Numbered from the whole stretch's first letter, positions 10,226 to 33,852 are shown. The stretch: 63,023 nt of DNA, filler included, from Atractiella rhizophila (GCA_021432655.1; 8 parts of 4 records of this genome joined end to end with filler, not necessarily neighbours in it), one strand, 5' to 3'. Numbers and translations: made by a program. The notes: generated from the letters alone by a model not told the origin.

Positions 10226-10548
10226 GCCGTAGAAGCTTTTTGGGTTTTTGTTCTTCCTTTTGAGGGTGGAGGTGTGCGTAATTATTCTTCAATTCTTCAT
10301 CGTGACATCGACATAGTGCTGGTAGATATAAATACTTGGGGCGTCATCGAATTGCACACCTAACTCCATCATGCGTATGCACAATCGAACAAAAACTTGA
10401 AATTGAACCGACTTATCCAATGAAAGGAACTGAAAAGCTTGACAGGAGCACTACCAGCACAGGTGTAAACGAGACAAACATTTCTGAAACATCAAAGCTA
10501 AGAACCACTCATCAAAGCTCCAAGCACACACTGAACAAGGGCTAAGGG

Positions 10549-12427: not shown

Positions 12428-12827
12428 GTCGGCGACTTCAGGAAGTGATATGTAAGGAGCAGAGGGGGTTGAAGGGGTGAAGAAGAGAGGTTGTGGATTG
12501 TGGAACTAGATTGTTATCAGATTAACTATATCTTGAGCCAACAAACCCACAGTTTGGACAAGATATCGCCTGCCACTAAGCTGAAATTGCGAATTTGTGA
12601 GTTCCCTGACAGAAGGTAAGCAAAGAACGAACGTTAAGAGTGATGGTTGATGCGTCGCTCTGCTCCTGGATTTTCTTTATTTCTCGCTTGATCTCCTCCT
12701 TTTCTAAGATACCTCCACCAGAGTCTCTCAGAAAAACCTTTCTGTATCTTTCGCTTTGGTCTTCTGGCTCGAAGCTTTTCTCTCGCTTTCCTGTCTTCAT
12801 TCTCAGAGTCAGCATCGCCATCGCACA

Positions 12828-13955: not shown

Positions 13956-16709
13956 GCCGTAGAAGCTTTTTGGGTTTTTGTTCTTCCTTTTGACGGTGGA
14001 GGTGTGCGTAATTATTCTTCAATTCTTCATCGTGACATCGACATTGTGCGGGTAGAGATAAATACTTGGGGCATCATCGAATTGCACACCTAACTCCATC
14101 ATGCGTATGCACAATCGAACAAAAACTTGAAATTGAACCGACTTATCCAATGAAAGGAACTGAAAAGCTTGACAGGAGCACTACCAACACAGGGTGTAAA
14201 CGAGACAAACATTTCTGAAACATCAAAGCTAAGAACCACTCATCAAAGCTCCAAGCACACACTGAACAAGGGCTAAGGGCTAAGACGCCAGCACTGGCTG
14301 CCTCGCTGCTGACGGTGGTACCCCTGGCGCACCTGTCGTCGTCCCTGTCGTAGGAGGTGCAGTTGCAGAAGCAGAGGGCGGGGGAGTCCAATCATCGACC
14401 TCTGCGAAGAAGCGGTCAAAAGAGGATTCGGCATATGCGACGCAATCGTGTCCGTATATGTTTTCTTGCATCCGTCTATATCATGCACAATCGCATCAGA
14501 GGGTCGTCCCTTTGCTGCCTACACATTGATTGGAGAAGGAAAAACCCACTGATCCGATACTTTGTCTGTGTTCACATCCCCACCAACGTTCACCCGCCGA
14601 CCTCGATCGTCCCGCTGCCCTCCTAGACTGGTATCCATTACCAAATGAACCTCTTTGCCAGAGTTCACCGCTTTCGCAAGCATCTCTTCGGCTCGCGTCT
14701 TTCGAACCCTCTATCGGCACATCCGAAATGATCAATTGAGATAGGTTGAGGAAGCAGAATGGGAAGACGAACCTCGTAGACCTTCAAACACTTGTGAATA
14801 TCTTTCTTATCCTTTACCCGTGCAAGACAGGCAGCGATAACAGCTCCGTCCTCGATCGCTTGCGCTGCTCCCTATCCGCCATGGGCAGGACATCATTTCA
14901 TAGGAAGAACAAACAAACGTCAAGACGCACCTGAGCTAAATGAGGTAGTGTAGCGTGACAGGCGTCCCCCGCCAACGCGACGTTCCCGTGCACCCAACTC
15001 CTGAGGTTTCCATGCATGACAAGTTTCCACTCGCAAATCTTGTCGTCTGGTGCAAGGTCCAAGAGTTTATGGATCAACTCGCAATAATCAGCGAAGACTT
15101 TCTTCATTCCCGCTTTCGTGCCTGTCGAAGTCCAATTGTCTGATTGTGCAAAATTGATGTCGGGATGGGCGGTGGAGATGTTGAACAGAGTGTTGCGATG
15201 TATCGGGTAACCCTGTTGCAAATTTTCGGGGACAGAAGAAGAGTCAGTTTGGTCCCGAGGAGAAGCAGAACAGAGGGACGAACGAGGATGTACCGCCGGG
15301 TCCCGATCCAGCGATAGACCGTATTGGAGTCGATGAGCTTTCGCAGCTCCGGGTCGGCAAGCATCTTCTCTCTCGGGATCGTTATTCGATAGGCAGCTGT
15401 GCCTGTGTCAATTGCTGCTGTTATTTCAGTTAGCTTTCTGGACGGAAATCCTCAAATCTCGAGAACGGACTCTTGTCCTCTTCCCCTAATGATCTCAGCA
15501 TCAAATATCTCGCTTTGCTCTTAATGCCATCAGCGGCAATGATAACGTCCCCGTCAATCGTCATCTTGTTTCCTTCTCGATTGAAAGCAAAAATTGAGAC
15601 TTTGTCAAAGTCCACATCCCCGACTCGATGATTCAAGATGAACCTGACGGAGCCGGCATATTCCGTTATGAGAGGCCGGTAGAGCGCGTCTATGAGAGAT
15701 GCTCGATGTGCAACCTGGATTCGTTTAGCCCAAGTAAACAATCCATAGAAAGATGTAATTCAAGAACGGACCATATGCGGATATCCGTACTTCGCTCGAA
15801 TGTTGGGTAAATTTAAATCTGCCAAACTCTCTCCGGTTGTTCCGCCTATCCACAAAGATCTCCGTCAGTAAATAGATATACGTCACACAAAGGCACATAC
15901 GTCGGATGCTAGTCGCCTTCATCTCCACCGCGTCCTCCAAAACGCTATCCCACACTTTCATCCTATCCAATAGCCTTGCCATATTGGGAGCTACCTGAAT
16001 TCCAACGCCGACAAAAGTCAAATCTCTCGCCTGTTCAATTACTGTTATGTCCTTGAATCCTCTCCGCGCAAGCGCCAGAGCAGTTGAGAGCCCGGCAATT
16101 CCAGAACCTAGAATGATTATACGCAGGTTTTGCGCTACGGGAGAGATGGGAACGGAATCCATGTCGGCGACTTCAGGAAGTGATATGTAAGGAGCAGAGG
16201 AGGTTGAAGGGGTGAAGAAGAGAGGTTGTGGATTGTGGAACTAGATTGTTATCAGATTAACTATATCTTGAGCCAACAAACCCACAGTTTGGACAAGATA
16301 TCGCCTGCCACTAAGCTGAAATTGCGAATTTGTGAGTTCCCTCACAGAAGGTAAGCAAAAAACGAACGTTAAGAGTGATGGTTGATGCGTCGCTCTGCTC
16401 CTGGATTTTCTTTATTTCTCGCTTGATCTCCTCTTCTAAGATACCTCCACCAGAGTCTCTCAGAAAAACCTTTCTGTATCTTTCGCTTTGGTCTTCTGGC
16501 TCGAAGCTTTTCTCTCGCTTTCCTGTCTTCATTCTCAGAGTCAGCATCGCCATCGCACAATGAACAAATGTGAGAAACAGCTACAGGGAGGGCCAAGACA
16601 GCAAATATATGCTCGTGGGATCTTGCTGGGAGGCAGGCGTTCAGGAGGGGAGAGCCGACGAGTTGCCGTCAGAATTCCGGTAAAATCGTACGAGTTTGGA
16701 GGGGGGGGA
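12978..16709. repeat. ~3.73 kb tandem duplication, unit 2
   Basis: Starts immediately after the G8-A run at 12969-12977 and ends at the identical G8-A run at 16701-16709. Confidence 0.95.
14280..16162 (-). CDS. FAD-dependent monooxygenase, copy 2
   Basis: Near-identical to 10549-12427 with the same motifs and no disabling change seen. Confidence 0.9.
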
Positions 16710-17563: not shown

Positions 17564-18685
17564 TTAATGCACGACTCCAAGTCTTCTCTTATCCGTGACC
17601 TTCTTGTGGCTCTTCTTGCTCCCGTGCGTCTTCTTGCTTGACTTAGCAGTAGTCGACTTAGTCGTCGTGTTCACTGCAGCAGACCTAGCAGTCGAGCACG
17701 GAGCGACCTTCTTCCATGGCAGAGAGACACCTTCGACGGGCGACTCTCCTTGAGTCCACCATTGGGCAACCCAGAGGTATCCTGTTCCCAGACAAATTAC
17801 ATCAACGACGGGAGCGGGAATGGGGCCAGAGCAAGGAATGACCTTGGAATGTAGCCTGATCGCCACCCCAGTAGATGCTGCACATGAGGTATCGTTAGGA
17901 GGAATAAGGCCAAAAAGAGGAAAACGGACGCGTTTACGTCCCAGGCTGCCACATTAGCGCAGTTTCCACTTGCAGGAGGATCGGGGTTGGTAGGAGGAGT
18001 GGTGGTCCCGTCCGTGAACTGCCACTGAAGAAATCAAGTTGGTGAGTTGAAAAGTGGTGCGCTAGGGCGAGACAGACGCTTATGGGGAAACGGCCAGTGT
18101 CAGCACCTGTTAAACACAGCCGTCATGATGAGCTTTATTGAGACTTGTGAGACCAACCGTTGTACAGAACAGCAAAGGGACCCCTTGCAAAGTCAAGATC
18201 GTTGTCCGTGCATCCAACACACCTTCATGAAGACAGAACTGTCTGTCAGGGCACGAAATTGACATGAGGAAGGTAACAATGTGCGGACCTGTCGACAACT
18301 GTGACGGTGACAGAAACACCATTGGCAGGATTCGTCGCCAGGATAGAGCGACCGCAGATAGTGGCAAGATTCGGGTTGGAGGACCCAGCTGGGATTGTGG
18401 AGTCGTACAACGCGTGTCCAACTGCTACAACGTTGTCGCTAGCCACCTATTTCGAATGCGATGGTTAACGTGGGGTTCTAGCGTGATACAACACTTGAAG
18501 GAAGATTTAAGGACGCACATTGTTGATTCCACAAGCCCCAAGGCCAACATCATAGCTGGGGTTCACTTCACTTAGCCAAAGAAAGCGGAAAACTGGTCAG
18601 AGACTCACACAGTCCCGTCACCCGTTGTAGCGAAGACTGTAGAAATGAAAGCAGCGAGGGTTGCAAAAGAGATAGCGGTTTTCAT
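17564..18685 (-). CDS. Secreted RlpA-like double-psi beta-barrel (loosenin/expansin-like) protein with C-terminal CBM5/12-like module and basic tail
   Basis: Signal peptide MKTAISFATLAAFISTVFA; spliced GDGTVYDVGLGACG...VVAV...ICGRSI...VTVTVVDR/CVGCTDNDLDF; Pro/Thr linker; CANVAAW...GYLWVAQWWTQGESP...PWKKVAPC; Lys-rich end. Confidence 0.8.
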
Positions 18686-20069
18686 TTTCAGTTTTCAAAG
18701 AAGGACAGAAAGAAAGTGATAGTGATGATACGACAATATGCTGGCTTTTCAGCACAACAACAGCTTCGACAAGTCCAGAACAAGGTAAAGCAACACTTGT
18801 CAATCAAACAAGCTGAGCCAACTTATATACGCACATATTTCGGGCAACCCAGTGGTAACCAGCGCGGAAAAGATGGAACACTTGTCCACGCCTCACTGCC
18901 CAAACCGAATCCTCTTTAAACGCGCTCATTCAGTGCAGTGTCGTTCCCTTGTGCAACGGGTGTGTAACCGTCCTCAGGAAACCGCCGGCCGCTTCAAACC
19001 ATGTGGCAGAGCATCTGTACAAAGCGTTGTTCCCGAGGGGTGTAAAAGAAACAACGAAAGCGAAAGTTCCTGATGAAGTATACGAATTGGACTCATATGG
19101 ATATTAAATTCATTTCGCCAGCAGGGTTCCTTGCTTTCGAGTAGACGTGTGAAATTACCGTTCAGGGCAGCCACAAACCGCTTTCCCCGGTATCATCCTC
19201 GTTTTATCATCCTCCTTGACCTTTACTCCCCTCTGTCTTTGCCCTCCACCAGTGTTAATGCAATTCATCAAACTGCCGTCCGCATTCTCGTATGTTCATC
19301 AGTTTGTCGGCTCCGAGGCTCCGTTGAACACTTATGAAATGCACAAAAAGTGCAATGTCAGAAGGGAAAGACGGACTAGATGAATTTCATGCTCGATCAT
19401 AGGTTTTACAAAAAGTAAGGCGGAGGGTAGAAAGCTCTTTGTGGTTTATATGGAGAGATGAGGGTAAAAGTCAAGGTGAGCAGCTGTTAGCGTTGAAGAG
19501 TTGGGAGGCGAGAGGGATTCGTGGGTTCGTTTGCCAGCGTACCAACTGTTTAGAGAGGTATAGAACGCAATTGTACAAATTGGCTAGGTATCATCTCATA
19601 TCGTAACTAATCAAGCCAATGATTGAAAAGGGGAGACTTTAAACCTAAAGCACAGACAGACCATCAAAAATTCCTTCGAAACAAAACATAACTGGGAGAG
19701 AATTGATATCATTCGGGTCGTCAATAATCATGAGTGAAACGGCGTATGAATCCATGCATATAGAAGAAACCATTGGCACTGAACACTCCATTGACCCGGA
19801 GTGGAAGTTCTGGATCTATGGAGTACAGTCTGCGCGTGCATATTGTTTGTTGTGGCGAGCTAACTGCGAGACTGAGGGCGAAAACAAAAGCTGCGAAAGC
19901 ACAATACGGAGAAGAGCACGTTGGATGGAAGCGATGTCGACGGAAATGACGTTTTCCCTCAAGTTTCTGTCAGAGAGAATTCAAGTGAAGTTCAATGGCT
20001 GATATCTCTGTGTGCCCCTTACCACGTTGTTGTTACAGCTGGTGCTTGTACAGTGTGAGATCTAGAGAC

Positions 20070-20984
20070 TTACTGACTTTGGGAGAATTGCTGAGTTCGC
20101 GAGGCTAGCTGCGTTCGAGAAGCTGGCTGGTTTCGCGAGGCTTGCTGCATTCGAGAAGCTGGCTGAGATCGAGGGGGTTGCTGAGTTCCAGAGGCTTGCT
20201 GAATTTGAGAGACTTGCTGAGTTGGAGGGTCTTCCTGAGGGTCATAATCGAGAAGTTCTAAGATCTGCATGACTCTCTCGATCTCGTCCATAGGATTCCA
20301 TGCACGAGAAACACACTGTCTCTTTTAGCATTGTTATTTGGGCCGGGAGGAAACTCACATCGATGTACACGGCCCCAATAATAGCCTTAACCAGCTCTGC
20401 ACAGGGTCCTTCCTTAAGCTCGTCCACACGGTGGTATGCGAGGTCTTGAAGCCCATACTTCTTGCATGCCTCCTCCAGGGGAGCTCCCGCAAGGCGACGC
20501 TGGATGGTGTCGGAGTGTAATTCTGAACATCAGTCCCGTCAAAAAATATCAACGGGATAGAAGTACACACTTCCATTGTCTCCCCGACCGACACGGTGGA
20601 TGACCTGCAAAAAATGAGCGTTAAAGGCACGGGAATCGAGCCGTACAACAGCCTGAACTGTCTTCATCGCCACGTCACCCAAGCTGTGGACGATTGAGTT
20701 CAGTTCACGGATGGCATCACGATACATGCGGACACTGTACCGTGCTAGCCCTGCATTTGCGCCTTGAGGCCCGCCACTGTAGCTCGAGTGTGTGATTGCC
20801 GTTAACCACAAGTCGTCGTTCTGTCGGTCCACGGGGTAGCCGATAAGTTGGTTCAGTCGGCGGAAGCGCTCTTCCATGCTTGTAGTTCCATATCCTATAG
20901 AGACCTGTCACTTTTCCTGGATGGAGAAGTGACTTGAGCAGCCTCACCAGACTGATCACGCCACTCGTTGTTGTGTAAAGACAT
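20070..20984 (-). CDS. Stand-alone RNase III-domain protein, copy 1 (~223 aa, predicted catalytically inactive, xQQASR-repeat tail)
   Basis: Six phase-consistent exons: 20984-20948, 20894-20741, 20683-20647, 20604-20571, 20522-20359, 20315-20070. Motifs AITHSS, NAGLARLGD and AELVKAIIGAVYID. Confidence 0.85.
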
Positions 20985-21289
20985 GAAAACGGATTATAGA
21001 TCAAAGCTCAGGGCGGTATCGCAGCCCGTTTTCGTCTTCTCAAGGAAATCTCGGCCATCGACAGAGGCTACGATCGTCCCTTTTAAAGCTTCTGTGACTA
21101 GACGGCACTCTAGCGAGGAGCAGGGCGGAAACTGTGCAGTCATGCAGCAGAGTGGGTCCTAGAGACATGACAATGTTTGCTTTCCCATTGATCATGTAAA
21201 CCACGGATCGACGGCTATATGACCGTCGAAGGCAGTCGGTTGAATTGCTTTCTAGCATTCGTCACCGGGAGCGTGTTTTACTGAGATTA

Positions 21290-22740
21290 ATGAGGCTCTG
21301 TTTTTTCGATCAATGTTTGTCCAGATCCTTGAGATACAGTAATATTTGCTCGCCTCCTCAAGTGTATCCGCCTAATGTTGTTGTAACCTTTGGCACCAAG
21401 TAGAAACTCAGATGGGCAATGCTGCTCTCCTTGTGTCTGTTGCGTGCAGCTCGATGGTTGCCAGTTCAGAACCAGATTTATAAGCCTGCGTGCTCTAATT
21501 CCAGTCCAAACGCTGACAGGATGACAGGGTGACAGGTTGTCAAAAATTGTCAAACTCGACCAATTAGGCTGCAATTACAATTCAGCCCGGCCTGGTTCCT
21601 GGCTCCACAGAAGGAAACAAAATGTGGATATCATGAGCTCATGGAGTTTCGTGGTAATGTAGGGCGCTCAGCGACTTCCACTCAAGTGCTGAACAGCGAA
21701 TGACAGGCTGTTCTCAAGAGTGTCTACTCACCGCAAGCAACAACCAACCAACAGGTGAATAAAGAGTGTCCGTCGCTATTAATGCAAGCGACGTCAGTCC
21801 TTTCTCATTTTTCTGAGTTTTGGAAAGATTCGGCGATTTGGTTACAATGATACTGGCGTTGTTTATTCCTCGCTTGCTCAATTCACGGTACGATAGAATC
21901 GATGTTTAACTCGAGCATTATATGGACGGTATGTCCTCCGAAACTGGGCGCTGGTGCGCTCGCCGAAGCGAAATAGTTGGGCGAGAGCACAGAGAAGTCA
22001 CACTAGGCTTGTGTGGATATGGGTACTGAATTCAAGCAAACAAACAACGACGTTAATACAATCTACATTATTTCAGTCAGATCATTTCTCTACTACGGAC
22101 TTTGGGTTAGAAAAGTGTCCATTACATTGTACGGGATCAATGAAGTTAGGTTGGATTGAGAGAATGCGCCAGCGTCGTTCACGTCTCTTACTCTTCATGC
22201 CTTCGCTAGGCTACGGATGGCGGCTTGGGTTGTCCAGCCATCTTACGCGCATTATCGGAACAGTAATGTATCCCAAATGTATCAGGAATTAGCCTGTTTT
22301 CATTGTCAACCATTCCAGGTATTTGACAATCATACCTCTTTCCTTCGATTTACGCGCAGCCATATTTTCATCGGACTTGTCCAGAGTCGTAGGGCCTACT
22401 CAGCGGGTTAGTAGCTTGAGCGTTATAATAAAGACCGGCAGTGCGCACGACATAAATGTCTGGCATAGCTTTCGCGGGAATTTTACGAAATCAGTAAAAC
22501 CCGGGATCAGAAAAATAAATCAGTAAAACGCGGGATCAGAAAAATATTGACTGTCTTCCTCCTCATTCATGGAGCAAAGATGCTGCCTGAGAAACGAAAC
22601 AAAGAACGCCTTGTGCATAAACTGACTGGGGATAGATGAGGCGATATGCTTGCCTTGTTCTTAAGAGCAGGCATCCTCGTCAATCCACAACTGAGACAGG
22701 CAGAACACATTTCCATTGAATTAATCACTCCTTCGCCATA
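21290..22740 (-). pseudogene. Decayed companion gene, unit 1 (F-box/LRR-like remnant)
   Basis: Fragments ALAQLFRFG, YNARVKH and PNRRIFPKLRK shared with units 2 and 3. In-frame stops and a 29-bp tandem duplication at 22488-22545. Confidence 0.4.
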
Positions 22741-23659
22741 GCTGGAATATGTATCCTATAGTCGACCTCCCTCCTAAGAACCTGAGCAAACAGGTAGCAG
22801 CGATAGCTGCAGAAGACCTCCACGCTTCGCCGCTTTCCAGCTAAGGTGCAACTCCTTAGGTCGTCCTCGCTGGAGAGGTGCACAATTAGCATTGGCATGA
22901 CGGACTCCGTGTTGGGAGTTGGGAGTTGTCCCGGTCGGCTCCGGAAGGGATGCGGTCGACGACACACGAACTTGACAGCAAAGGAAATAATGAACGAACC
23001 TTGTGTTTGATACTTAGGCCACAGGCTTCACAGGAAGTAGGGAGAGAGTTTCGGGGCTTATATGGGCGGGATAGGGATGCGACGGTAAAGAAAAGGTGCG
23101 GAGCTCTTCGCATTGAAGAGTCAGAGATGAGAGGGATTCATGGGTTTATTTGCCAGAGGAACTGTTGAGAGAGGTGGAGAGTTGTGATTTTACAGATCTG
23201 GCTAGGTATCATCGTCATATCGTAGCTAATCAAGCCAATGTTGAAACGGCGAAATTGTAAAGCGGACAGATCAAGTGCATCGAAAGTACAGAAAAGTGGA
23301 ACAGTTATCATTGAGGTCGTCAATAGTCAGGAGATGAAAGATGAGACGTATCTCAAACTAGTTCTCATGAAGGGCAAGAAGAAGGTGGCAGTGTATGTGG
23401 TAAAACGTAGTGCTGCTGAACGCAGACTATAGACGCGAAACGAAGGAAAGTCTTGGAAATACGGGGTATCGTGCATTAGATCATCGTAAAGGTCATTAGC
23501 TAACTGGGAGAAACTGATGAAAGAAAAAACGGCGTGGCTTAAAAATGAGAAGCAGAAAATGAATATGAGGCAATCAATTTGATGGAACCAGTGTCGGAAG
23601 TGACGTGTTTTTCCATGTTTTGTCAGACAAATTCAACCGAAAATCTACATGAATGGGTG

Positions 23660-24575
23660 TTATTTCTGTCTGGCCCTTGTCGTGTCGTCGTTCTCAGCTG
23701 GCGTACCCACCATGTTGGATGGAGAGGCTTGCTGAGTTTGAAAGAATTGCTGCGCTCGAGAGGCTCGCTGAGTTCGACAGGCTTGCTGAGTTCGTGGGGC
23801 TTGCTGATTTTGATCTTGCCGACGTTGAGGGTTATAATCAAGAATCTCCAATCTATGCATGACTCCCTCGATCCTGTCCATGGGATTGCATGCACGATAA
23901 ACACTCTGTCCCTCCACTTAGCATTGTTGTTCTGTCCAGGAAGAAACTCACATCGATGTACACAGCCCCAATGATAGCTTTGACCAGATCTGCGCAGAAT
24001 CCTTCTGCAGGTTGGGCAATGTTATGATATGCGAGATCTTGAAGTCCATAGTTCTTGCATATCTTCTCGAGAGGATGGCACGACAGGCAACGCTGAAGGG
24101 TTTGGGAAGTTAATTCTGAAATATTGGCCCATTACAACAAAAATCGACGGGATAGAAGCACACACGTCCGTCGTCTCCCAAACCGACACGGTGGATGACC
24201 TGCGAAAAAAATGAGAGTCCGGCGGTTGGGAAATCGAGACGTACCACCGTTTGAACTGTTTTCATCGCCACATCACCCAAACTGTGGACGATTTCAGTTC
24301 GCAGATGGCTTCTGCATGCGGACACTGACCGTGCAAGCCCTCCATTTGCGCCTTGACGGCCGCCAGAATAGCTCGAGTGTGTGATTGCCGTACGCCACAG
24401 GTCGTTGTATTGTCGGTCCATAGGGTAGCCGATCAGTCCATACAATCGCTCGAAGCGCTCTTCCACTGTACCTCCAGCAGCTCCATACCGTGGGAGACCT
24501 GTCACTTTTGCTGGCTGCAGAAGCAGTTTAAGCCTACTCACCAGACTGAGGGCGCCGTTCGTTGGAATAGTCCAT
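23660..24575 (-). CDS. Stand-alone RNase III-domain protein, copy 2 (~227 aa, predicted inactive, Q-rich repeat tail)
   Basis: Same five intron positions as copy 1. MDYSNERRPQS...AITHSSYSGGRQGANGGLARLGDVAMK...CADLVKAIIGAVYID...QQAPRTQQACRTQRASR. Confidence 0.85.
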
Positions 24576-24664
24576 AAGGCTGGATACGGATGAGAAGCTC
24601 AGTGCAGTATGGCAGTCACCTTTCTCGAGGCAGTCTGACCTCATAGGCTGAAGCTAATCATCCC

Positions 24665-24672
24665 TTTTTATA
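24665..24672 (-). promoter_or_regulatory. TATA box upstream of RNase III-like copy 2
   Basis: GAAGCTATAAAAA on the minus strand about 95 bp upstream of the ATG; positionally conserved in copies 1 and 3. Confidence 0.55.
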
Positions 24673-24919
24673 GCTTCTGCAACTTTTATAGCCAGATTGC
24701 GTACGAAGCAGAGGGTGCTGGGCGCAAAAAGAGTTGGTCCAAACCACTTGCCCATGTTTGCTTGTCCCTGGCTTGTTGTCCATTGATCAGTTGTGAACCA
24801 GGGATCGACAGTTCATGACCGTCGAAGAAGGAGGTCGGTTGAATGATTCGGTCACCGCAGAAGTGTTTTGCTCAAATTCATGACAGTGTTTTGACAGTTG
24901 TTTTTCCACGATCCAAAGC

Positions 24920-25958
24920 TACAATAATATTTGCTCACCGCCTTGATTTATCCTTTTGATGTGGTAACTTTTATCACGAGGTAGAAACTGCAGATCAGTA
25001 ATGCTGCTCTGCACAAGGGTGTTCGGTGCAGCTCGATGGTTGCCACTTAGAACGGTATTAGAGCAAAGGAATTGCATAATCCATGCATATTCCTGAATGA
25101 TTGATGATTTGTGTCGATCCGAATCTTTCGGATCAGGACTATTCATTGTTATCCAGATTTATAAGCACACGTGCTCTTGTCAAATCGTCAAAATCGAGCA
25201 ATCGGGCTACGTTTACAACCCCAGGCGTGCTCGGATTGTAGCTCCCGAGAATGCTGTCATGAGTTTCATAGAGTTTCATGGTAATAGAAAGCGGGAACCT
25301 GACCGAAATGCAGATTTCGTTAAAGTGCAGAACAGCGAATGACATGCTCTTCTCACGCTCACCGCAAAATACAACCATTAGGTAAACAAAGACCTGCCGT
25401 TGTTTTTGAGACCTACAACGTTGGTCCTTCGTCATTTTTCTGGTTTTGGAAAGTTTTTGGCGATTTGGTCCCGACATTTAACTCGAGCATTGGAGACATG
25501 AGTGAAAATTTCTGTTCTCCGAAACTTTCGGCGGTGTCCCTCATGCCATCGCCCAAGCGAAATAGTTTGGCAAGGGCAAAGAGGCAGTCCCACCAGGTCT
25601 GTGTCATGGCACTGAATTGAAGCAAAAAAACAACGCCGTTAACGCAATCTACATTATTTCGGATCAAATGATTTCTCTATCATGGAATCTGGGTGAGAAA
25701 ATACACAACTGCAATTTTGCCAGATCAGCGGTGTCATGTTTCACTGAGAGAAGGACTAGGGCTAGCTTCGTTCAAGTCTCAACTCTTCTGCAGCCAGGTT
25801 GACCACCGTTCCCCCTTTCCCACCTCAAAGAAGGCGCCTAGGGCTGTTCAGCCATCTTTTGCGGTATTGATGCAGTGGTGTATTGATGCAGTGGTGTATT
25901 GATGCAGTGGTGTATTGATGCAGTGGTGTATTGATGCAGTGGTGTATTGATGCAGTGG

Positions 25959-26001
<43 letters not shown>

Positions 26002-26480
26002 TGATGCAGTGGTGTATTGATGCAGTGGTGTATTGATGCAGTGGTGTATTGATGCAGTGGTGTATTGATGCAGTGGTGTATTGATGCAGTGGTTTTGCCC
26101 TGAAAGTATAGGAGTTATCTGTTTTCATTGTCAGTGCACCTCCTCCAAGCCACAGTGAATGACAATGAACCCTTTTCTTCTTTGTGCCGTCACAGTTCTA
26201 TCGGATTTGTACGGTTCTATTTTGGTTCCCTCGTACGCAAATGGATAAGGTCGCCAACTTAACCATCAAAGACTGGTAGTGCTACAAAGAAGTGAAATTT
26301 CGCGGGTTCAAAGTTCCTATGCGTCTTCATCCATGCAGCGAAGCTGAGGATACAAAGAAAGCCTTGTGCATCTGAACAGAGGAATAGAATGTGCCACAAG
26401 CTTGTCTTGTGTTCAGGAATCCCAGTCAATCCATAATGAGACACGCATCACAAATTTGAAATAATCACTCCTTCGCCATG
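24920..26480 (-). pseudogene. Decayed companion gene, unit 2 (F-box/LRR-like remnant)
   Basis: RNNVDCVNGVVFLLQ...DCLFALAKLFRLGD; frameshifts, deletions and a minisatellite inside it. Confidence 0.4.
25865..26093. repeat. 16-bp minisatellite (TATTGATGCAGTGGTG): 6 units, A40, 6 units
   Basis: Counted directly: units 25865-25958, poly(A) 25959-25998, units 25999-26093. Confidence 0.95.
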
Positions 26481-26883
26481 GTTGGATGTATATATATTGG
26501 ATCATCGATGTATCATCGAGGAAACTGAGCAAAGAGGTAGCAGAGAAGAGCTCCCGGCTCCGCCGCTTCCGTACCTATGGTGCAACCCATCAGCATCAGC
26601 TTGACCTCAGTGTTGTGTTGCGACCGTCGGCTCCGGGTGAACATCGAATGATCTGGATCGATGGTTGCTCGCTCAGAACCAGCTCGGCTCAGAACCTAGT
26701 TAAGGAACGCTGAGAAGTTGGCGGGCGAGTATTAAAAATTAAAGTGAGTGCGGAGATGAGAGGAAGCTTTCTTGTGGTTTAAAAACGGGGAAAATGTTGG
26801 ATATTGCATTCAGGTGAGCAGACGTTTTCATTGCAAGAGTGGAAGACGGGCGGCGAGAGAGATTCGAGGGTTCACGCTTTGGT

Positions 26884-28367
26884 GGCAGTTTAGAGGAACA
26901 TAGTGCGGTCGTACTCATCATCATATCGTACCTAATCAAACTGCTATCTGAAACGGAGAGACTGAAAAAAGCTCCATCAAACCAAAAATTGATTGTAGTT
27001 GGGGAGGGGAACATGGGGCAGAGAAATTGGTATCAGAAGAATTGGTATCAAGCAAGTCGTCACGCGTCAAAAGTCGTGAGGTATATCTCAGAGCTGGTTC
27101 CAACAAATAGAAGCGACAAGAGTATGTCGGTTGAATGGCTAGAACTCTGTATGCTGTAAGACATCATGAGGCATTTACGGTATCTGGGTCAAACGGGACG
27201 AAATGGAAAAACATGAAACAGGGATGAGAAGTGGGGGAGAAAACGACGGCGATGGGACTGATTATGGATGACATGCGCCATAGAGTACGATTTCTCCAAC
27301 TTTCTTTACTGAGCGAAAATCTTCCTTAATAATATTCGTAGTTGGTCTGCTGGTATTGTCCTTGACTGCTACCCCGTGGGTTGTACCCTTGGTTGTTATG
27401 TCGCTGATAGGATACCGGGTTGCCATTCGGCTGGTGGTACATCTGGTTGGCGATTGGCTGGTAGTATCCTTGGCCGCCACTCGGTTGGTTGTATCCTAGA
27501 GTGCTACTGGGATGGTAGCTGCCCATTGTCGTTAACTCGCTAGCACCACTTGTGGCTTCTACGTCTTGCTCTTGCTCTTGTCCTGGCCCTGGCTCTTGCT
27601 CGTCCTCTCGCTCCGGCCATTAAAAAGGCAGTTTAGAGGAACATAGTGCGGTCGTACTCATCATCATATCGTACCTAATCAAACTGCTATCTGAAACGGA
27701 GAGACTGAAAAAAGCTCCATCAAACCAAAAATTGATTGTAGTTGGGGAGGGAAACATGGGGCAGAGAAACTGGTATCAGAAGAATTGGTATCAGGCAAGT
27801 CGTCACGCGTCAAAAGTCGTGAGGTATATCTCAGAGCTGGTTCCAACAAAATTGAAGCGACAAGAGGATGTCGGTTCTGAATGGCTAGAACTCTGTATGC
27901 TGTAAGACATCATCAGGCATATACGGTATCTGGGTCAAACGGGACGAAGTGGAAAAACATGAAACAGGGATGAGAAGTGGGGTAGAAAACGACGGTGATG
28001 GAACTGATTATGGATGACATGCGCCGTAGAGTACCATTTCTCCAACTTTCTTTACTGAGCGAAAATCTGCCTCAATAATATTCGTAGTTGGTCTGCTGGT
28101 ATTGTCCTTGACTGCTACCCCGCGGGTTGTACCCTTGGTTGTTATGTCGCTGATAGAATACCGGGTTGCCATTCGGCTGGTGGTACATCTGGTTGGCGAT
28201 TGGCTGGTAGTATCCTTGGCCGCCACTCGGTTGGTTGTATCCTAGAGTGCTACTGGGATGGTAGCTGCCCATTGTCGTTAACTCGCTAGCACCACTTGTG
28301 GCTTCTACGTCTTGCTCTTGCTCTTGTCCTGGCCCTGGCTCTTGCTCGTCCTCTCGCTCCGGCCATT
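26884..28367. repeat. ~740 bp direct tandem duplication (26884-27621 and 27627-28367) with an AAAAA filler; copies only the 3' tail of RNase III-like copy 3
   Basis: Both units start GGCAGTTTAGAGGAACATAG and end CTCCGGCCATT. Confidence 0.95.
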
Positions 28368-29111
28368 GTTCTTTCTCAGGGTCATAAAGAAGACCCAGAT
28401 TATCCATGACTTCCTCGATATATTCCATGGGGTTGTAGTCACGAGACACACACTATCTCCCTCATTAGCATTGTTTTTCAACCAGGAGAGGACTCACATC
28501 GATGTACACGGCGCCGATGATTGCCTTGACCAAATCTGCACAACGGCTCCCAGGAAACTCTGACATGTTATAATATGCAAGATTTTCGAGCTTTATCCTC
28601 TTGCATGCTGCTTTGAGTGGGCGTTGGGACAGGCGGCCTTGGATAGCTCGGGTGTGTAAAACTGAATTGCAAGGTCATTCCAAATATCAAAGGCAGAGGC
28701 ACAGACTTGGGTCATCTCCCTTGCCAGCACGATAGAGAACCTGCAGAGAATAAGAGTGAAACAATTGTGGTATGAGGACATACTGCCGTCTGAACCGTTT
28801 TCATCGCCACGTCACCCAAGCTGCAGGAGGACCTGAGTTCGCAGATGCTTGCTCATTCAGCAGCCACGTACCGCGCGAGCCCTCCATTTGCGCCTTTGAC
28901 AGCGGTAGAATGGCTCGAGTGTGTGATTGCTTCGAGCCACAGGGGGTACTTCTCTGTGACAATAGTATATCCAGTGATCCTGGATAATTGCTGGAGCCGT
29001 TCCACTGCTGTGGGTACATCTGTTCCATTCCCTGTAGAGTTCTATTAGTCTCTTACTTTAAGACAAAAGAATTGCAGCGGCCTCACCAGCTTGACGGTTG
29101 CTGTTGGACAT
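28072..29111 (-). CDS. Stand-alone RNase III-domain protein, copy 3 (~266 aa, predicted inactive, acidic linker plus Q/N/Y/G prion-like tail)
   Basis: Same five intron positions. MSNSNRQA...EAITHSSHSTAVKGANGGLARLGDVAMK...CADLVKAIIGAVYID...GYNQPSGGQGYYQ...QGQYQQTNYEYY. Confidence 0.85.
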
Positions 29112-29207
29112 GGTGCGAAGTACCGAAGTAAAACCTTGATGAATATGACCGTATGTTCTCGCGGAGTGCGATCTGAGAGCAACCGAAGCTACAATCGTGC
29201 AATGGTG

Positions 29208-29215
29208 CTTTTATA
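29208..29215 (-). promoter_or_regulatory. TATA box upstream of RNase III-like copy 3
   Basis: GAAGCTATAAAAG on the minus strand about 100 bp upstream of the ATG at 29111. Confidence 0.55.
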
Positions 29216-29989
29216 GCTTCCGCGACCTTATGAGCAGATACTGTAACAGAGCGTGAAGCGCGAAAAATGTGGGTCCAGAACAACTTGCCAATGTTTTCGC
29301 ATCCATCGTAAACCAAGGTTGACACAGTATCTTGTGACTTTTTCGAAGCTCATCGGTTGAATGGGACTGACTTACAGGATCTGCTCATCCAGAGGGTTTC
29401 CTCAGATTTAATGCCCATAATCTGATATCCCTTTCCATCCAGTTGTTTATCACTGATCGAGTACTGATCCAGGAGATCACGCAATTGTTGCCCATTGGAA
29501 TTTTAATAGTTCGATCTTATGAGCTTTGTGACCGAGTAGATAAGTCGGAGAGTGAATAAGGCTCATGCCTGTCACCAGCTCGATTAGTGTCAGTGAGAAC
29601 AGTATGCCGAGGGTGTGGCACATTCATGAATGATAGGTTTCGATCCGAGCCCCTCGATATTCAATCAAATTGGAGTCGTTGTCAAAGAGTCGGTTCTAGT
29701 TCCAGTCCTAAGGATGCTCCAGCGGTGACACGGAGACAGGATTTGTGAACGATTGTGCTGTATTCACAACTTCGGCATCTTCGTAGCTCGAAAAGAAGCG
29801 ACGATACGCCAGGCAATAAGCGGATGTCATGGGTTTCACGGTAATATAAAGTGCAGGCTTGATCGAAACACGATTCAAAGGAAATTCCATGCGAAGTGCC
29901 AAACAGCGAAAGAGTGGCTCTTCCAAGAGGATTCGTTCATCACAGGCAACCGTCGACACGCCAAAAAGGGACCGTATTATCAAGGCAGG

Positions 29990-30910
29990 GCAGGTTAGTC
30001 TTCCGTCAGCTTTCTGAGTTTTGGAAAGATTCGACGATTTGGTGCCAATGATATCAACTTGTTTATTGCTTCCTTGCTCAATTCACGGCGCGACAAGAAC
30101 CGACGTTTAACTCCAGCATTGGAAACACGGTGGAATGTTTGTGTGCTCCAAACCTCGTCGCTCAAGGCGTCGCCGAAGCGAAACAGTTTGGCTAGGGCAC
30201 AAGAGGCAGTCCCTCAGGTTTGAGCCTGGGTACTGACTTCACGCAAACAAACAACGACGTTAATGCGATCAACATTATTTCAGATCAAATGATTTCTTAT
30301 CATGGACCTCGGGAAGAAAAATACGCACCATTCAATTTTGCCCAGATCAGTCACCTCATCTTTCATTCAGAGAACGGCCCTGCTTCGTTCCAGTCTCCTA
30401 GTCTTCCTTGGCCATTCTATGTCAAACAGTCGTGCTTGATATTGTTCCCCCGTTCTCCCGCTTATGGGAGGTGCCGTTGAGCTGTCCAACTCGAATGATC
30501 CGTTTCTGTATCCGAGCTCCTCCTCGCAGGTGAGTGACATGGATTGCGATTTTCTTCGAGTTATGCGCAGTCATGATTGCACTTGTATAGTGACGTGGGT
30601 TTGAACGTGTGCTGAGGGATTGATCATTAAAGATCGCAGTGCACCAGAAATAAACGTCTTGCAGTGTTTTCCCCAGAACTTTACGAAATCAGTAAAAGCC
30701 GGATTCAGAACATTTTTTTGGGTGTCCTCTTCATGCAGCAATCTGGGGTGCCGAACAAAGAAAGCTTTGTGCATGAACTGAGTAGAGGAATAGAAGGCGC
30801 CATAAGCTTGCCTTGTTCTCATTGTCCTTAAGAGCAGGCATCCTCGTCTCAATCCACAACTGAGACGGGCATCACACATTTCCACTGAATAAATCACTCC
30901 TCCAACGTGG
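29990..30910 (-). pseudogene. Decayed companion gene, unit 3 (F-box/LRR-like remnant)
   Basis: CALAKLFRFGD and NAGVKRRFLSRRELSKEAINKLISLAPNRRIFPKLRKLTE; in-frame stops; start codon lost. Confidence 0.4.
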
Positions 30911-30918
30911 TTGGAAAT

Positions 30919-31472
30919 ATGTACCTGTTCGCACTTCTTTTCTTCCTACAAAGTCAAACCTTCTTTGCTTATGCCATGCCGCAACAATGTGAGTATCCTC
31001 TTCCTTTCAAGTTTCTTAAGAACAACATTCTGATGCTTTCCAGCTCTACCCCTAACAACAGGGGGACTGTACCCTATAGGATTCAGCTTGGGCCCTCTGG
31101 TGACTGATGTAATCCAACCACCATCCTTGAACGAGCTGAGTGCGTTGGGATGGAGCACCATCATGTCCAGCACTAGCTTAGAAGTCACGACTGCGACTGT
31201 CACAGTTCTGGTATCACCAACTGAAAGCCACGCGAAATACTTTAGGAAAGAGAGGAAAGCTGCGTGGTTCTCTTGTCGCGAGTTGCGGACAGGGCTAGAA
31301 AATCTAAGAGTAAGTGAAAGGTGTCCCTACGGCACTACAGTGAGTGTGGTTCTTGATCAGGTCTATAATACGGGTGCTGCTGGTCGCAGTTGCAATTGTT
31401 TGCTCAAAAATCTAAGTAGTAGAAGAGGCCGCGACAACCCTATACGTCCCCACCTCCTTTGGTGTCCTTGGC
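30919..31472 (+). CDS. Possible small secreted protein (5' part; runs toward the gap)
   Basis: Signal-peptide-like MYLFALLFFLQSQTFFAYA; canonical 55-bp intron 30989-31043 joins in frame to a Ser/Thr-rich ORF. Confidence 0.4.
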
Positions 31473-33244
31473 NNNNNNNNNNNNNNNNNNNNNNNNNNNN
31501 NNNNNNNNNNNNNNNNTTAATTAATTAANNNNNNNNNNNNNNNNNNNNNNNNNNNNNNNNNNNNNNNNNNNNAACGGTACGCAACTTGTTATTGTTATCA
31601 TGAATGGCGACAATGGTGGCTTTTCGGCTAGTTTCCATATGATTGGACGCCATTTTAAGCTCGCCTCATCTTGTTTGGTCTGGTTGAATCCTCCAGCTCC
31701 AGAGAAGATGAGTTCAATGCCATAAACTCAACGGTGCCAAGAAGCGGGACAAGCGTCAGAACATTAAGGACGCAAAACATATGGATTTCGAAGTTGCACA
31801 TCAGACAACCATAAAAAGAGCTTGGATAAATTCAGTGGTCCTTCCACACGATCAAATGAGGATGATCTTCTTTTTCTTCTTCTTCTTTGCCGGTGGGCGG
31901 AGCACTGCATCATCTGTCCTTTCATNNNNNNNNNNNNNNNNNNNNNNNNNNNNNNNNNNNNNNNNNNNNNNNNNNNNNNNNNNNNNNNNNNNNNNNNNNN
32001 NNNNNNNNNNNNNNNNNNNNNNNNNNNNNNNNNNNNNNNNNNNNNNNNNNNNNNNNNNNNNNNNNNNNNNNNNNNNNNNNNNNNNNNNNNNNNNNNNNNN
32101 NNNNNNNNNNNNNNNNNNNNNNNNNNNNNNNNNNNNNNNNNNNNNNNNNNNNNNNNNNNNNNNNNNNNNNNNNNNNNNNNNNNNNNNNNNNNNNNNNNNN
32201 NNNNNNNNNNNNNNNNNNNNNNNNNNNNNNNNNNNNNNNNNNNNNNNNNNNNNNNNNNNNNNNNNNNNNNNNNNNNNNNNNNNNNNNNNNNNNNNNNNNN
32301 NNNNNNNNNNNNNNNNNNNNNNNNNNNNNNNNNNNNNNNNNNNNNNNNNNNNNNNNNNNNNNNNNNNNNNNNNNNNNNNNNNNNNNNNNNNNNNNNNNNN
32401 NNNNNNNNNNNNNNNNNNNNNNNNNNNNNNNNNNNNNNNNNNNNNNNNNNNNNNNNNNNNNNNNNNNNNNNNNNNNNNNNNNNNNNNNNNNNNNNNNNNN
32501 NNNNNNNNNNNNNNNNNNNNNNNNNNNNNNNNNNNNNNNNNNNNNNNNNNNNNNNNNNNNNNNNNNNNNNNNNNNNNNNNNNNNNNNNNNNNNNNNNNNN
32601 NNNNNNNNNNNNNNNNNNNNNNNNNNNNNNNNNNNNNNNNNNNNNNNNNNNNNNNNNNNNNNNNNNNNNNNNNNNNNNNNNNNNNNNNNNNNNNNNNNNN
32701 NNNNNNNNNNNNNNNNNNNNNNNNNNNNNNNNNNNNNNNNNNNNNNNNNNNNNNNNNNNNNNNNNNNNNNNNNNNNNNNNNNNNNNNNNNNNNNNNNNNN
32801 NNNNNNNNNNNNNNNNNNNNNNNNNNNNNNNNNNNNNNNNNNNNNNNNNNNNNNNNNNNNNNNNNNNNNNNNNNNNNNNNNNNNNNNNNNNNNNNNNGGG
32901 ACAGATTTCAGGATCTTGCATTCGCAGTGACCGCAAACAAAGCAAAAGAGAAAACGACACGAATAGAATGTGCTGGGCATGACTAGTGAGAGAAAATCAT
33001 GTGCTGTCTCGCACCAGACGCGCGACATAGTTGCTGGGAGCATCATCCAGGAGCCAGGAGACTTATCGCAGGAGACTTATCGTAGGGACCGAGGAAGAAG
33101 ATGGTGAGGCAGATTTGACAGTCCACTCTCTTGGGAAGAAAGACTACAGCTTCGCCTTCTTCCCTGACGTGAATCTCAACACGAAGCAAGTGCAAAGATA
33201 GCAAAGATGGTACCAATAGCCTAGTGAAGACAAAGGAAAGAAAC

Positions 33245-33574
33245 TTACGTCCTCGGACCAACGGTTCTCAGGATCCCACCTTTCCCCTCCTTATCCCTCT
33301 CCTTCGACTTATCCCCTTCTTTCCTCTCCTTCGCCCACCTCGCCGCCATCCTCTTTCCACCCACCACCCTCCCATTCAATCCCACAATCGCCGCCTCTGC
33401 GCTCTCCCTCGTCGAGAACGAAGCGAAAGCATACCCTCTCGGCTCGCCTGATGGTGTGAAGAGGAAGTCGAGGGCGGTGAGTCTGCCGTATGGCTGGAGG
33501 AGGCGGAGGAGGGCGTATTCGGTGAGAGTGGGAGGGAGCGAGGAGAGGTGGATGCGGGTGTTGTCAGCATCCAT
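33245..33574 (-). CDS. Single-RRM RNA-binding protein (RBM18-like); exon 1 only, 3' exons unresolved
   Basis: RNP2-like IHLSSL, DFLF...GEPRGYAFASF (RNP1), LNGRVVGGKRMAARWA; exon ends at a GTAAGT donor. Confidence 0.75.
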   Translation of the reverse strand: MDADNTRIHLSSLPPTLTEYALLRLLQPYGRLTALDFLFTPSGEPRGYAFASFSTRESAEAAIVGLNGRVVGGKRMAARWAKERKEGDKSKERDKEGKGGILRTVGPRT

Positions 33575-33852
33575 CCCTTTTTGGCTCGCGCGTCGGTGCC
33601 CCAGAAATGTCGCGCAATGAGAAAGACAATAATGCGCCAGGATCGCGATGACGATCGAGGGTGGCAAATTTAAGAGTTAGTTGGCACGGTTCGAACCGTG
33701 TTCTAGAACACCGGTCAACCTTGCCATGCTTCTTTTGGCATTTCAAACAGATGGACATCCGCATTTTTTCAATGCTTTGCCTTTCCACCAACTTTTATTG
33801 TTGCTCTATCTTGTCTCTGAGCTTGGGCTCATAATAACATAATACACACACG

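Follow-up and report, generated by a model that had tools for sequence, protein, structure and literature searches.

Stand-alone RNase III-like genes of Atractiella rhizophila as a candidate family of pseudo-enzymes

Three neighbouring minus-strand paralogues, c1, c2 and c3, lie in the Atractiella rhizophila window (the whole stretch of DNA that was analysed, 63,023 nucleotides). Each is transcribed and spliced, and encodes a small RNase III-like protein whose catalytic residues are in part replaced. They probably belong to a pseudo-RNase III family restricted to Atractiella, whose members would be non-catalytic modules acting by binding. Each protein has a single domain of the RNase III nuclease type and, C-terminal to it, a disordered tail of low complexity, and would be cytosolic or nuclear. 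The domain retains its fold, with the two helices that are most conserved in it, and two-metal cleavage of dsRNA would be lost. The former catalytic valley would bind structured or double-stranded RNA; alternatively, the dimer interface would bind another RNase III-domain protein. The tail would serve interactions with partners or in condensates.

Known non-catalytic RNase III folds serve as parts of ribosomes, as splicing factors and as obligatory partners of editing endonucleases. To our knowledge, no free-standing, expanded family of non-catalytic RNase III genes has been described in fungi. A recent survey of fungal Dicers demanded two RNase III domains and so missed such proteins (PMC12663654, section 2.1). 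If the Atractiella proteins bind dsRNA or cap an RNase III or Dicer, they would add a new level of regulation to RNA processing in a symbiont of plant roots, and would be a natural experiment on the RNase III valley after loss of catalysis. If they are inert or purely structural, the gain in annotation is modest: a gene without annotation so far, a corrected C-terminus and the label of pseudo-enzyme.

Gene structure and transcripts

A first-pass annotation had proposed, from the sequence alone, three minus-strand genes with the same five intron positions. Gene models and spliced RNA contigs bear this out (Table 1). The contigs come from four public runs, namely X1 and X2 (root metatranscriptomes), X5 and X8, and carry spliced forms of all three genes. 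The five common introns occupy equivalent positions, all 16 modelled introns (42-76 nt) have GT..AG ends and the frames are intact, as had been claimed for every copy.

The products had been given as 223-266 aa. The TAA at 20070-20072, formerly read as the stop codon of c1, falls within a sixth intron of this gene, and its C-terminus is 11 residues longer than first described. This intron is absent from the X2 and X5 contigs (joint 20016->20073, cut +1); the joint has a depth of 23.1 and a side of 117 in X2, a side of 117 in X5 and an 11-letter loose end in X1. Introns 20316-20358, 20523-20570, 20605-20646 and 20684-20740 are each spliced out in at least three runs. For intron 1 (20895-20947) the joint is found in X5, and X2 shows a variant with replaced letters, so that all six c1 introns are seen as joints. 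The translation carries the motifs GLARLGD and AELVKAIIGAVYID.

Spliced contigs of c2 are present in X1, X2 and X8. Joints are listed for introns 24200-24244 and 24282-24329; introns 4 and 5 are deduced from X1 record 5, where 71 letters equal exons 4 plus 3, and from short loose ends. The exon 2 boundary is at 24480 in X1 and at 24465 in X2. For c3, all five introns are spliced out in X5, and intron 28453-28497 in X8 as well; the X5 joint of intron 4 is 2 nt off the GT..AG model, with equal length.

The 216-aa model of c2 is identical to P0015 (A. rhizophila BT69DRAFT_1332371) and that of c3 to P0016 (BT69DRAFT_1348918). Both already have entries as hypothetical proteins carrying PF14622, so the earlier epithet "undescribed" holds only in part. 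The c1 product has no counterpart among the proteins that the searches return; c1 would be a so far unannotated gene.

RNA contigs of c1 terminate at about 21038-21040, the loose end in X2 consisting of adaptor letters. This places the mRNA start about 55 nt 5' of the start codon, which no other ATG precedes. As read from the DNA, the putative TATA-like block of c1 would also stand upstream of c2 and c3.

Table 1. Coordinates of the features in the window
Feature	Position	Strand	Details and basis
c1, stand-alone RNase III-like gene	CDS 19981-20984	-	7 exons, 234 aa; model, GT..AG check, RNA joints
c1 exons	20948-20984, 20741-20894, 20647-20683, 20571-20604, 20359-20522, 20074-20315, 19981-20017	-	
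c1 stop, TGA	19981-19983	-	
c1 sixth intron, GTAAGT..AG	20018-20073	-	56 nt; RNA joints, frame check
18-nt tandem repeat coding for the Q-A-S-R-T-Q-like c1 tail	20056..20239	-	10.2 copies; Tandem Repeats Finder, translation
Putative TATA-like promoter block of c1, AGCTTTAAAAGGGA	21077..21090	-	Read from sequence
c2, stand-alone RNase III-like gene	CDS 23660-24575	-	6 exons, 221 aa, or 216 aa with alternative intron 1 acceptor
c2 exons	24542-24575, 24330-24480 (or -24465), 24245-24281, 24166-24199, 23952-24115, 23660-23905	-	
Two putative TATAAAA(G) boxes upstream of c2	24664..24690	-	Read from sequence
c3, stand-alone RNase III-like gene	CDS 28072-29111	-	6 exons, 266 aa
c3 exons	29087-29111, 28872-29031, 28784-28820, 28707-28740, 28498-28661, 28072-28452	-	
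Putative TATAAAAG box upstream of c3	29208..29215	-	Read from sequence
Partial duplicate of c3 tail	27329..27619	-	Residues 170-266, 99% aa identity; tblastn, blastn
Three diverged tandem units of about 3.5 kb	19467-22852, 23087-26586, 28370-30923 (span 19467..30923)	.	blastn self-comparison

RNase III fold and active-site residues

PF14622 scores 44.7 bits with c2 (P0015) and 38.4 bits with c3 (P0016). Since both values exceed the cut-off of 35, the RNase III match is not due to chance. PF00636 scores 19.7 and 17.4 bits, respectively, below its cut-off of 27, and c1, scanned exon by exon only, gives weak Pfam matches (E 0.039). The all-alpha fold of the RNase III nuclease domain is recovered by profile and also by a predicted structure, that of P0003, a paralogue from outside the window with about 90% core identity to c2. 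In agreement with the stand-alone architecture first proposed, Pfam returns only PF14622 and PF00636 for c2 and c3, with no dsRBD, helicase or second RNase III domain, and PF00035 has no match in the seven family proteins scanned. Membership of the Dicer, Drosha or Rnt1-Pac1 groups is ruled out by the single RNase III-type domain, the lack of any other Pfam family and the size of 216-266 aa. Likewise, the proteins are not equivalogs of bacterial class 1 RNase III: TIGR02191 gives 20.5-24.3 bits against a cut-off of 166.25, and the C-terminal dsRBD is missing.

The "complete RNase III-type helical core" announced earlier is thus complete as a fold but not in its catalytic residues. This degeneracy of the active site had been overlooked. 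RNase III has four metal-binding carboxylates, E40, D44, D107 and E110 in Aquifex numbering, the last of which bridges both metals and is termed functionally essential (PMC3867540). We mapped these positions onto the family from alignments. The E40 equivalent is Ala in all eight Atractiella proteins aligned. That of E110, which is Glu in 18/18 bacterial rows, is Lys in five of the eight, and Gln in the other three; c1, c2 and c3 all have Lys. The D44 and D107 equivalents are each retained in 7/8, the exception being P0017 with Glu and Gln, respectively. At the four ligand positions c1 reads Ala, Asp, Glu, Lys. The signature motif is L-A-R-L-G-(D/E) in 8/8 Atractiella proteins, with G-E instead of G-D in P0017, versus L/I/F-E-F/Y-L-G-D in the 18 bacterial rows. 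The family thus lacks the residue set of a catalytically competent RNase III of any class: every member has other residues in place of two of the four carboxylates, so that c1-c3 probably bind rather than cut. By their entry titles, 1rc7, 1yyo and 1yz9 are crystal structures with dsRNA of Aquifex E110K or E110Q mutants.

The residue that follows the lost signature Glu is Arg in the family versus Phe or Tyr in bacteria. We take this bacterial Phe to be part of the dimer junction, and the dimer interface of the family, if its members dimerise, may accordingly differ. Where bacterial sequences have the G-x-G-E segment, the aligned loop of the family is 3-5 residues shorter. Devoid of a dsRBD, an isolated RNase III domain may have a low affinity for RNA.

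Loss of the canonical ligands need not entail inactivity, to judge by analogy with Mucor R3B2. In this protein the RNase III fold holds a non-canonical acidic cluster and nevertheless cleaves RNA, though ssRNA only (PMC8136814). Since the D44 and D107 equivalents are kept, one-metal chemistry could likewise persist in the family. The presence of these two acidic residues in c1-c3 and the strong constraint on the valley residues would suit an enzyme that still cleaves, at an altered active site and with another substrate, e.g. single-stranded RNA. By the same account (PMC8136814), the Mucorales R3B2 proteins are also fungal and lineage-restricted, with a shortened RBM4. However, they are active ssRNA nucleases with three acidic positions and two dsRBDs, whereas the family has two such positions and no RNA-binding domain, and in c1-c3 a lysine replaces the metal-bridging Glu. 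R3B2 is absent from the matches of the PDB profile and fold searches. We regard a surviving nuclease of this kind as quite unlikely.

Constraint, tails and the duplicated locus

Over 149 core codons, pairwise dN/dS among c1-c3 (Nei-Gojobori) is 0.32, 0.23 and 0.32, with dS of 0.57-1.45. The core is therefore under purifying selection, as had been supposed for the copies, although values of this size indicate only moderate constraint. The signature helix (N..LARLG.xAMKT) is unchanged even in the distant paralogue P0017. In the tails dN/dS rises to 0.48-0.73. They are disordered in the predicted structure (pLDDT <50), and Q, N, S, G, Y, P and T make up 54-76% of their residues; those of c1 and c2 are repeats of the hexapeptide Q-A-S-R-T-Q, while Q, G, Y and N abound in the 100-residue tail of c3. 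The N-termini are, by eye, hydrophilic and acidic.

The three tandem units share 66-79% DNA identity, and each comprises one gene with non-coding flanks. These flanks resemble one another in all frames and contain stops (tblastx), indicating that there is no second conserved ORF. A truncated copy of the c3 tail adjoins c3 within a 741-bp direct tandem duplication (26884-27621 ~ 27627-28367, 97.3%); it has no upstream exons and could be either a recent real duplication or an assembly artefact. Apart from it, tblastn reveals no further family copy in the window.

That these are recently duplicated genes drifting without function, and transcribed from surviving promoters, would accord with this truncated copy, with the almost free evolution of the tails and with the abundance of young tandem duplications in the window (blastn self-comparison). 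Such a history is very unlikely, however, since frames, splice sites and core motifs are intact at the dS values reached, the core is constrained, and the three types recur in a second array on another contig.

The family might instead supply non-catalytic subunits that pair with a competent Rnt1- or Dicer-type protein, either forming an asymmetric dimer with a single active site or blocking the partner. RNase III domains act as dimers, and in the trypanosome editosome, whose endonucleases need a degenerate RNase III partner, only one subunit per pair is catalytically competent (PMC6800513, PMC9508840). The two helices that vary least within the family also build the RNase III dimer interface, and several diverged paralogues would fit several partners or states. 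Conversely, genes for Argonaute, Dicer or RNase III are absent from the window, and we consider partner subunits of this type unlikely. The neighbours of c1-c3 are ordinary genes, and nothing found here supports the involvement in dsRNA processing, RNAi or antiviral defence that the first-pass annotation suggested.

Distribution and comparison with known systems

A phmmer search with P0003 of 1,835,955,588 representatives gives 11 matches at E <= 1e-3: four family members, all from A. rhizophila, six bacterial RNase III with a dsRBD and one unrelated repeat protein. The family, with at least nine genes in Atractiella, is thus found only in A. rhizophila among these representatives, in keeping with the lineage-specific expansion postulated earlier.

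Small RNase III-like proteins without a dsRBD (precomputed Pfam) have nevertheless been annotated in numerous species of Aspergillus and Penicillium, as well as in lichen fungi, Aureobasidium and Akanthomyces. They have 117-195 aa and a single RNase III domain, and are labelled "ribonuclease III domain-containing"; no study or published name was found for them. Like the Atractiella proteins (8/8 Ala), they show the Glu-to-Ala change in the signature (L-A-x-x-G-D, 26/26 rows), and they share the V-M-x-x-L-x-L C-terminal helix. They differ in having lost another ligand pair, the D107 equivalent being kept in 1/26 and that of E110 being Glu in 25/26, and they lack the repeat tails and the T-H-S-S-Y motif. 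A tree that sets them against bacterial, Dicer and plant RNase III, with no Rnt1, mL44, mL57 or Mini-III rows, places both sets on one side of a branch (UFboot 79, SH-aLRT 84, 83% of 200 bootstrap trees). By hhalign, however, the ascomycete set (9.6e-21) is no closer to the family than bacterial RNase III (3.4e-21). Kinship of the two sets, as judged from these comparisons, is no more than moderately supported. It is possible, though doubtful, that together they form a clade, spread across fungi and so far unstudied, whose stand-alone RNase III domains are non-catalytic and have the Glu-to-Ala change in common. This clade would have expanded in Atractiella into arrays with prion-like Q/N/Y tails, and its members would act as modulators that bind dsRNA or RNase III/Dicer. 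For example, they might sequester dsRNA within RNA granules, or cap active RNase III domains there, while the fungus colonises roots.

Mitoribosomal mL44 and mL57 are conserved components, whereas the Atractiella family is multi-copy and found in one genus only. PF22935 (RM44_endonuclase) has no match at E <= 0.01 in P0015 and P0016, and reaches 13.6 bits with c2 exon 5, under the cut-off of 27; the profile search of PDB returns no mitoribosomal chain. The genes are therefore most probably not plain mL44/mL57 orthologues, and duplicated structural mitoribosome proteins of this type are an extremely improbable explanation.

Mini-III shares the dsRBD-less state and is catalytically active (PMC3867540). 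The incomplete catalytic set, on which this comparison is based, excludes the family from this class. The editosome proteins KREPB4-8 also have RNase III-like domains without catalytic competence and act by dimerising with an RNase III partner (PMC6800513, PMC9508840), which offers a model of how the family might function. They carry further motifs and belong to a mitochondrial editing complex; their likeness to the family would be one of mechanism only. Arabidopsis RTL4/NFD2 (PDB 9h4a), from a plant of unrelated lineage, has 18% identity, tying with other RNase III domains, and no match at the sequence level in the sequence and PDB profile searches.

Among the closest known systems is bacterial class 1 RNase III (E. 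coli Rnc and the Aquifex aeolicus enzyme), in particular the E117K and E110K mutants. Unlike these, the family lacks a dsRBD, has lost the E40 equivalent too and has a shorter RBM4-like loop. Its proteins carry an insert of 4-5 residues after V-Y-I-D and a low-complexity tail, and are encoded by eukaryotic genes that contain 5-6 spliceosomal introns.

Gene models and transcripts of the tandem locus

Splice sites of the three minus-strand genes c1, c2 and c3 were picked by hand from the sequence, and the resulting splice models were then tested. All 16 modelled introns (42-76 nt) are bounded by GT..AG, and five of them occupy equivalent positions in the three genes. The description of three paralogues with five matching intron positions, put forward in the first-pass annotation, is borne out by these models.

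Coordinates of the genes and of other features in the window
Feature	Position	Strand	Details
c1 CDS	19981-20984	minus	7 exons, 234 aa
c1 stop codon	19981-19983
c1 additional intron	20018-20073		GTAAGT..AG; skipped in X2 and X5
c2 CDS	23660-24575	minus	6 exons, 221 aa, or 216 aa via alternative acceptor of intron 1
c3 CDS	28072-29111	minus	6 exons, 266 aa
Duplicate of c3 end	27329-27619		99% identical to the final 97 c3 residues, within a 741-bp direct duplication (tblastn)
Conserved block of ~175 bp	19467-19643; 23087-23261		78% identity; the c1 and c2 stops lie 340-570 nt upstream
Outside RNA contig cover	21470-22411; 24924-25865
GT..AG joint in X8, crossing 3' part of c2	23093-23964	plus
Second GT..AG joint in X8	26810-26886	plus
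16-nt tandem repeat between c2 and c3	25864-26093		14 copies surrounding a 40-A run
Assembly gap	31927-32897		~970 N; six frames appear open, apparent GC lowered
RRM-domain frame	33248-33676	minus	PF00076, E 7.9e-13; ~4 kb upstream of c3, beyond the assembly gap
Direct duplication	1749-3715 / 7467-9517		95-96% identity; unknown ORFs
Direct duplication	9618-12977 / 13348-16709		98.7% identity; aspartyl protease and FAD-oxidoreductase genes
Direct duplication	37732-38983 / 39084-40307		93% identity; APH-like kinase genes
Copia-type reverse transcriptase fragments	58107-59518	plus	PF07727
Short inverted and direct repeats flanking the copia fragments	58048-58124; 59785-59917; 60464-60529

Parts of the stretch occur in eight public runs, of which five are recorded as RNA. 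Four of the eight were compared (X1 and X2, both root metatranscriptomes, X5 and X8), and contigs skipping predicted introns are present in all four. These contigs speak for transcription and splicing of c1-c3, not for expression levels. In c1, four introns are each skipped in at least three runs, while intron 1 is skipped in X5 and, as a variant with replaced letters, in X2. The TAA earlier read as the c1 stop falls within the additional intron; the protein thus ends further downstream, with a C-terminus 11 residues longer. All five c3 introns are skipped in X5, the intron 4 joint lying 2 nt away from the GT..AG model at equal length. For c2, introns 2 and 3 appear among the joints listed for RNA contigs. 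Introns 4 and 5 are deduced from one X1 contig that carries 71 letters, exactly exons 4 plus 3, between exons 5 and 2, and from short loose ends of contigs. The end of exon 2 lies at 24480 in X1 but at 24465 in X2, indicating that both intron 1 acceptors are used. A TATA-like block is common to the three genes; it lies some 40-50 nt upstream of the point, near 21038-21040, where c1 contigs end.

Two plus-strand joints in X8 hint at antisense or overlapping plus-strand transcripts but may be spurious, since their sides comprise just 27-28 letters. The joint crossing c2, with a side of merely 28 letters, is not read as an antisense transcript. The c2 copy of the ~175-bp block appears in X8 as a short contig at a depth of 78-103, versus 0.5-8 in the coding part. 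It may mark where a long 3' UTR ends, in a library biased towards 3' ends, or derive from a transcript of its own.

Arrays, further copies and surroundings

The genes are housed in three diverged tandem units of ~3.5 kb each (66-79% DNA identity). The flanks of these units are alike in DNA but have no conserved reading frame by tblastx: their similarity extends to every frame and is interrupted by stops, hence carries no coding signal, and a second conserved gene per unit was rejected. No fourth family copy was found in the window by tblastn. The interval 18500-31900 has no Rfam match (E <= 0.1), and tRNA scanning of the window was negative.

The 216-aa model of c2 and the 266-aa model of c3 are letter-identical to P0015 and P0016, respectively, both entered at NCBI as hypothetical proteins from Atractiella rhizophila and encoded on one 109,738-bp contig. 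The fungus is described in paper titles as root-associated and a member of the Pucciniomycotina. No c1 product is among the matches listed from two profile searches, and c1 therefore seems to be an unannotated gene. A word-based search with c1 exon 5 returned a single homologue; it is uninformative because it missed c2 and c3, both present in the collection.

A second array with the same three types is found on an 83,635-bp contig; its proteins P0004, P0003 and P0006 have accession numbers that almost run in sequence. They are 66% (P0004-c1), 81% (P0003-c2) and 78% (P0006-c3) identical to their counterparts, and the two arrays may be either paralogous or diverged haplotypes. Three more members (P0005, P0007 and P0017) on other contigs bring the family to at least nine genes in A. 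rhizophila. P0007, annotated at 387 aa, has a 230-residue N-terminal extension and is missing the central part of the RNase III domain, which probably reflects an error in the gene model or a fusion.

Pfam hits were collected for 86 of the 109 listed frames, those left out being overlapping duplicates or within the assembly gap. They comprise aspartyl proteases and an FAD oxidoreductase within the 98.7% tandem duplication, duplicated APH-like kinases, a lipoxygenase, a GTP cyclohydrolase and a Ser/Thr kinase. None of the Pfam matches in the window points to RNAi. The RRM-domain frame is the sole other RNA-related gene seen there. The three young direct duplications listed in the table may be genuine tandem copies or, alternatively, haplotypes that the assembly placed next to each other.

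Fold, active site and tails

An RNase III-type domain, as read by eye in the first-pass annotation, is recovered by profile: PF14622 (Ribonuclease-III-like) scores 44.7 bits in P0015 and 38.4 bits in P0016, above the cut-off of 35. The Pfam scan revealed no other domain in these two proteins, and exon-by-exon scans gave sub-threshold matches only. A four-member profile searched against the PDB retrieved bacterial RNase III from E. coli (5e-5), Thermotoga (9e-4) and Aquifex (3e-3), then Dicer-2 (0.09). No mitoribosomal, Rnt1, Mini-III or R3B2 chain (the last a Mucorales RNase III-like protein) appeared at E <= 10, an absence that says nothing against kinship. The AlphaFold model of P0003, a protein with ~90% core identity to c2, is confident over residues 11-160 and disordered from residue 166. 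Ranking by structural similarity did not tell RNase III subfamilies apart.

The active site of the family is degenerate as judged from the alignment, a point overlooked in the first-pass annotation. The bacterial signature motif N-E-R-L-E-F-L-G-D reads N-G-G-L-A-R-L-G-D in Atractiella, and the second motif, D-x-x-E-A-I-I-G-A in bacteria, reads D-L-V-(K/Q)-A-I-I-G-A. The first metal-ligand Glu is replaced by Ala in all eight Atractiella proteins and the last by Lys (five) or Gln (three), whereas both are kept in 18 of 18 bacterial rows; in c1 the four ligand positions are occupied by Ala, Asp, Glu and Lys. In Aquifex numbering the ligands of the two Mg ions are E40, D44, D107 and E110, according to passages of a review (PMC3867540), where E110/E117 is described as functionally essential and bound to both metals. 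Entry titles record Aquifex E110K and E110Q mutants crystallised with dsRNA. Lys or Gln at the E110 position, the natural state of this family, is thus the type of change by which RNase III has been made to keep binding while losing cleavage. Relative to bacterial RNase III, the Atractiella loop aligned with the G-x-G-E segment is 3-5 residues shorter, and an insert follows V-Y-I-D.

The core is under constraint. Over 149 core codons (Nei-Gojobori), dN/dS is 0.32 for c1-c2 (dS 0.57), 0.23 for c1-c3 (dS 1.45) and 0.32 for c2-c3 (dS 1.04), and the signature helix is invariant in seven family proteins, the distant P0017 among them. The tails that follow, for which a poor alignment gives a dN/dS of 0.48-0.73, span 33-100 residues, of which 54-76% are Q/N/S/G/Y/P/T and few are hydrophobic. 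In c1 and c2 the tail is made of Q-A-S-R-T-Q-like hexapeptides, specified by an 18-nt repeat present in 10.2 and 4.6 copies, respectively; that of c3 abounds in Q, G, Y and N. Tail pLDDT is below 50 in the P0003 model. Taken together, the three genes are expressed and encode an RNase III fold under constraint, with half of the metal ligands gone, no RNA-binding domain and a disordered tail.

Relatives, possible mechanism and known kinds

An exhaustive phmmer search with P0003 of 1,835,955,588 representative proteins gave 11 matches at E <= 1e-3: four family members, all from A. rhizophila, six dsRBD-containing RNase III proteins of bacteria and one unrelated repeat protein. Since the best matches outside the family are bacterial, horizontal transfer from bacteria was considered; it is not claimed, given bacteria-dominated libraries, an unrooted tree and 5-6 introns per gene. 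A second profile, built from the family and two distant fungal matches, retrieved at least 25 named ascomycete proteins of 117-195 aa among the matches listed (120 of 1029), from Aspergillus, Penicillium, lichen fungi, Aureobasidium and Akanthomyces. None of these 25 has a dsRBD, and their annotations read ribonuclease III or RNase III domain-containing. An Atlas search also hints at a group of RNase III-like proteins, ~185 aa long, in Basidiomycota.

In the 26 tabulated ascomycete rows (25 named and one unnamed), the signature-motif Glu is Ala throughout, as in the Atractiella family. The ligand pair lost is nonetheless a different one: just 1 of 26 rows retains the D107 equivalent, whereas 25 of 26 have Glu at the E110 position. 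An unrooted maximum-likelihood tree (47 rows, 176 columns) places seven Atractiella, 17 ascomycete and one unnamed protein on one side of a branch (UFboot 79, SH-aLRT 84, 83% of 200 bootstrap trees). It uses 17 of 26 tabulated ascomycete, 15 of 18 bacterial and 8 of 10 other rows, and omits P0007 (broken gene model), c1 (no protein id) and any Rnt1, mL44, mL57 or Mini-III. In hhalign, the Atractiella profile scores equally against the ascomycete (9.6e-21) and bacterial (3.4e-21) profiles. Kinship with the ascomycete group is plausible from these comparisons, not established.

The 'RNA-regulatory system' proposed in the first-pass annotation is not evidenced. The most likely mechanism, by analogy, would be a non-cleaving dimer whose former catalytic valley would bind structured or double-stranded RNA; alternatively, the dimer interface might pair with another RNase III domain. 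The proposal of a non-cleaving dimer draws on dsRNA binding by E110K, on dimerisation as a pervasive feature of RNase III domains (an excerpt of PMC8136814) and on the degenerate RNase III partners in trypanosome editosomes (excerpts of PMC6800513 and PMC9508840). Nuclease activity can persist with an odd RNase III site, as R3B2 shows (PMC8136814). A 2025 fungal Dicer survey kept only proteins with two RNase III domains, according to an excerpt (PMC12663654). Our literature search found no published study of the Atractiella family or of the ascomycete small proteins.

The c1-c3 genes are real and odd. Stand-alone RNase III domains are a known kind, exemplified by Mini-III and RTL4, as are non-catalytic RNase III folds, found in mitoribosomal proteins and editosome partners. 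The Atractiella family differs from all of these in its own pair of substitutions (Ala plus Lys/Gln), its repeat or prion-like tails, its expansion as tandem arrays and its confinement to one genus.
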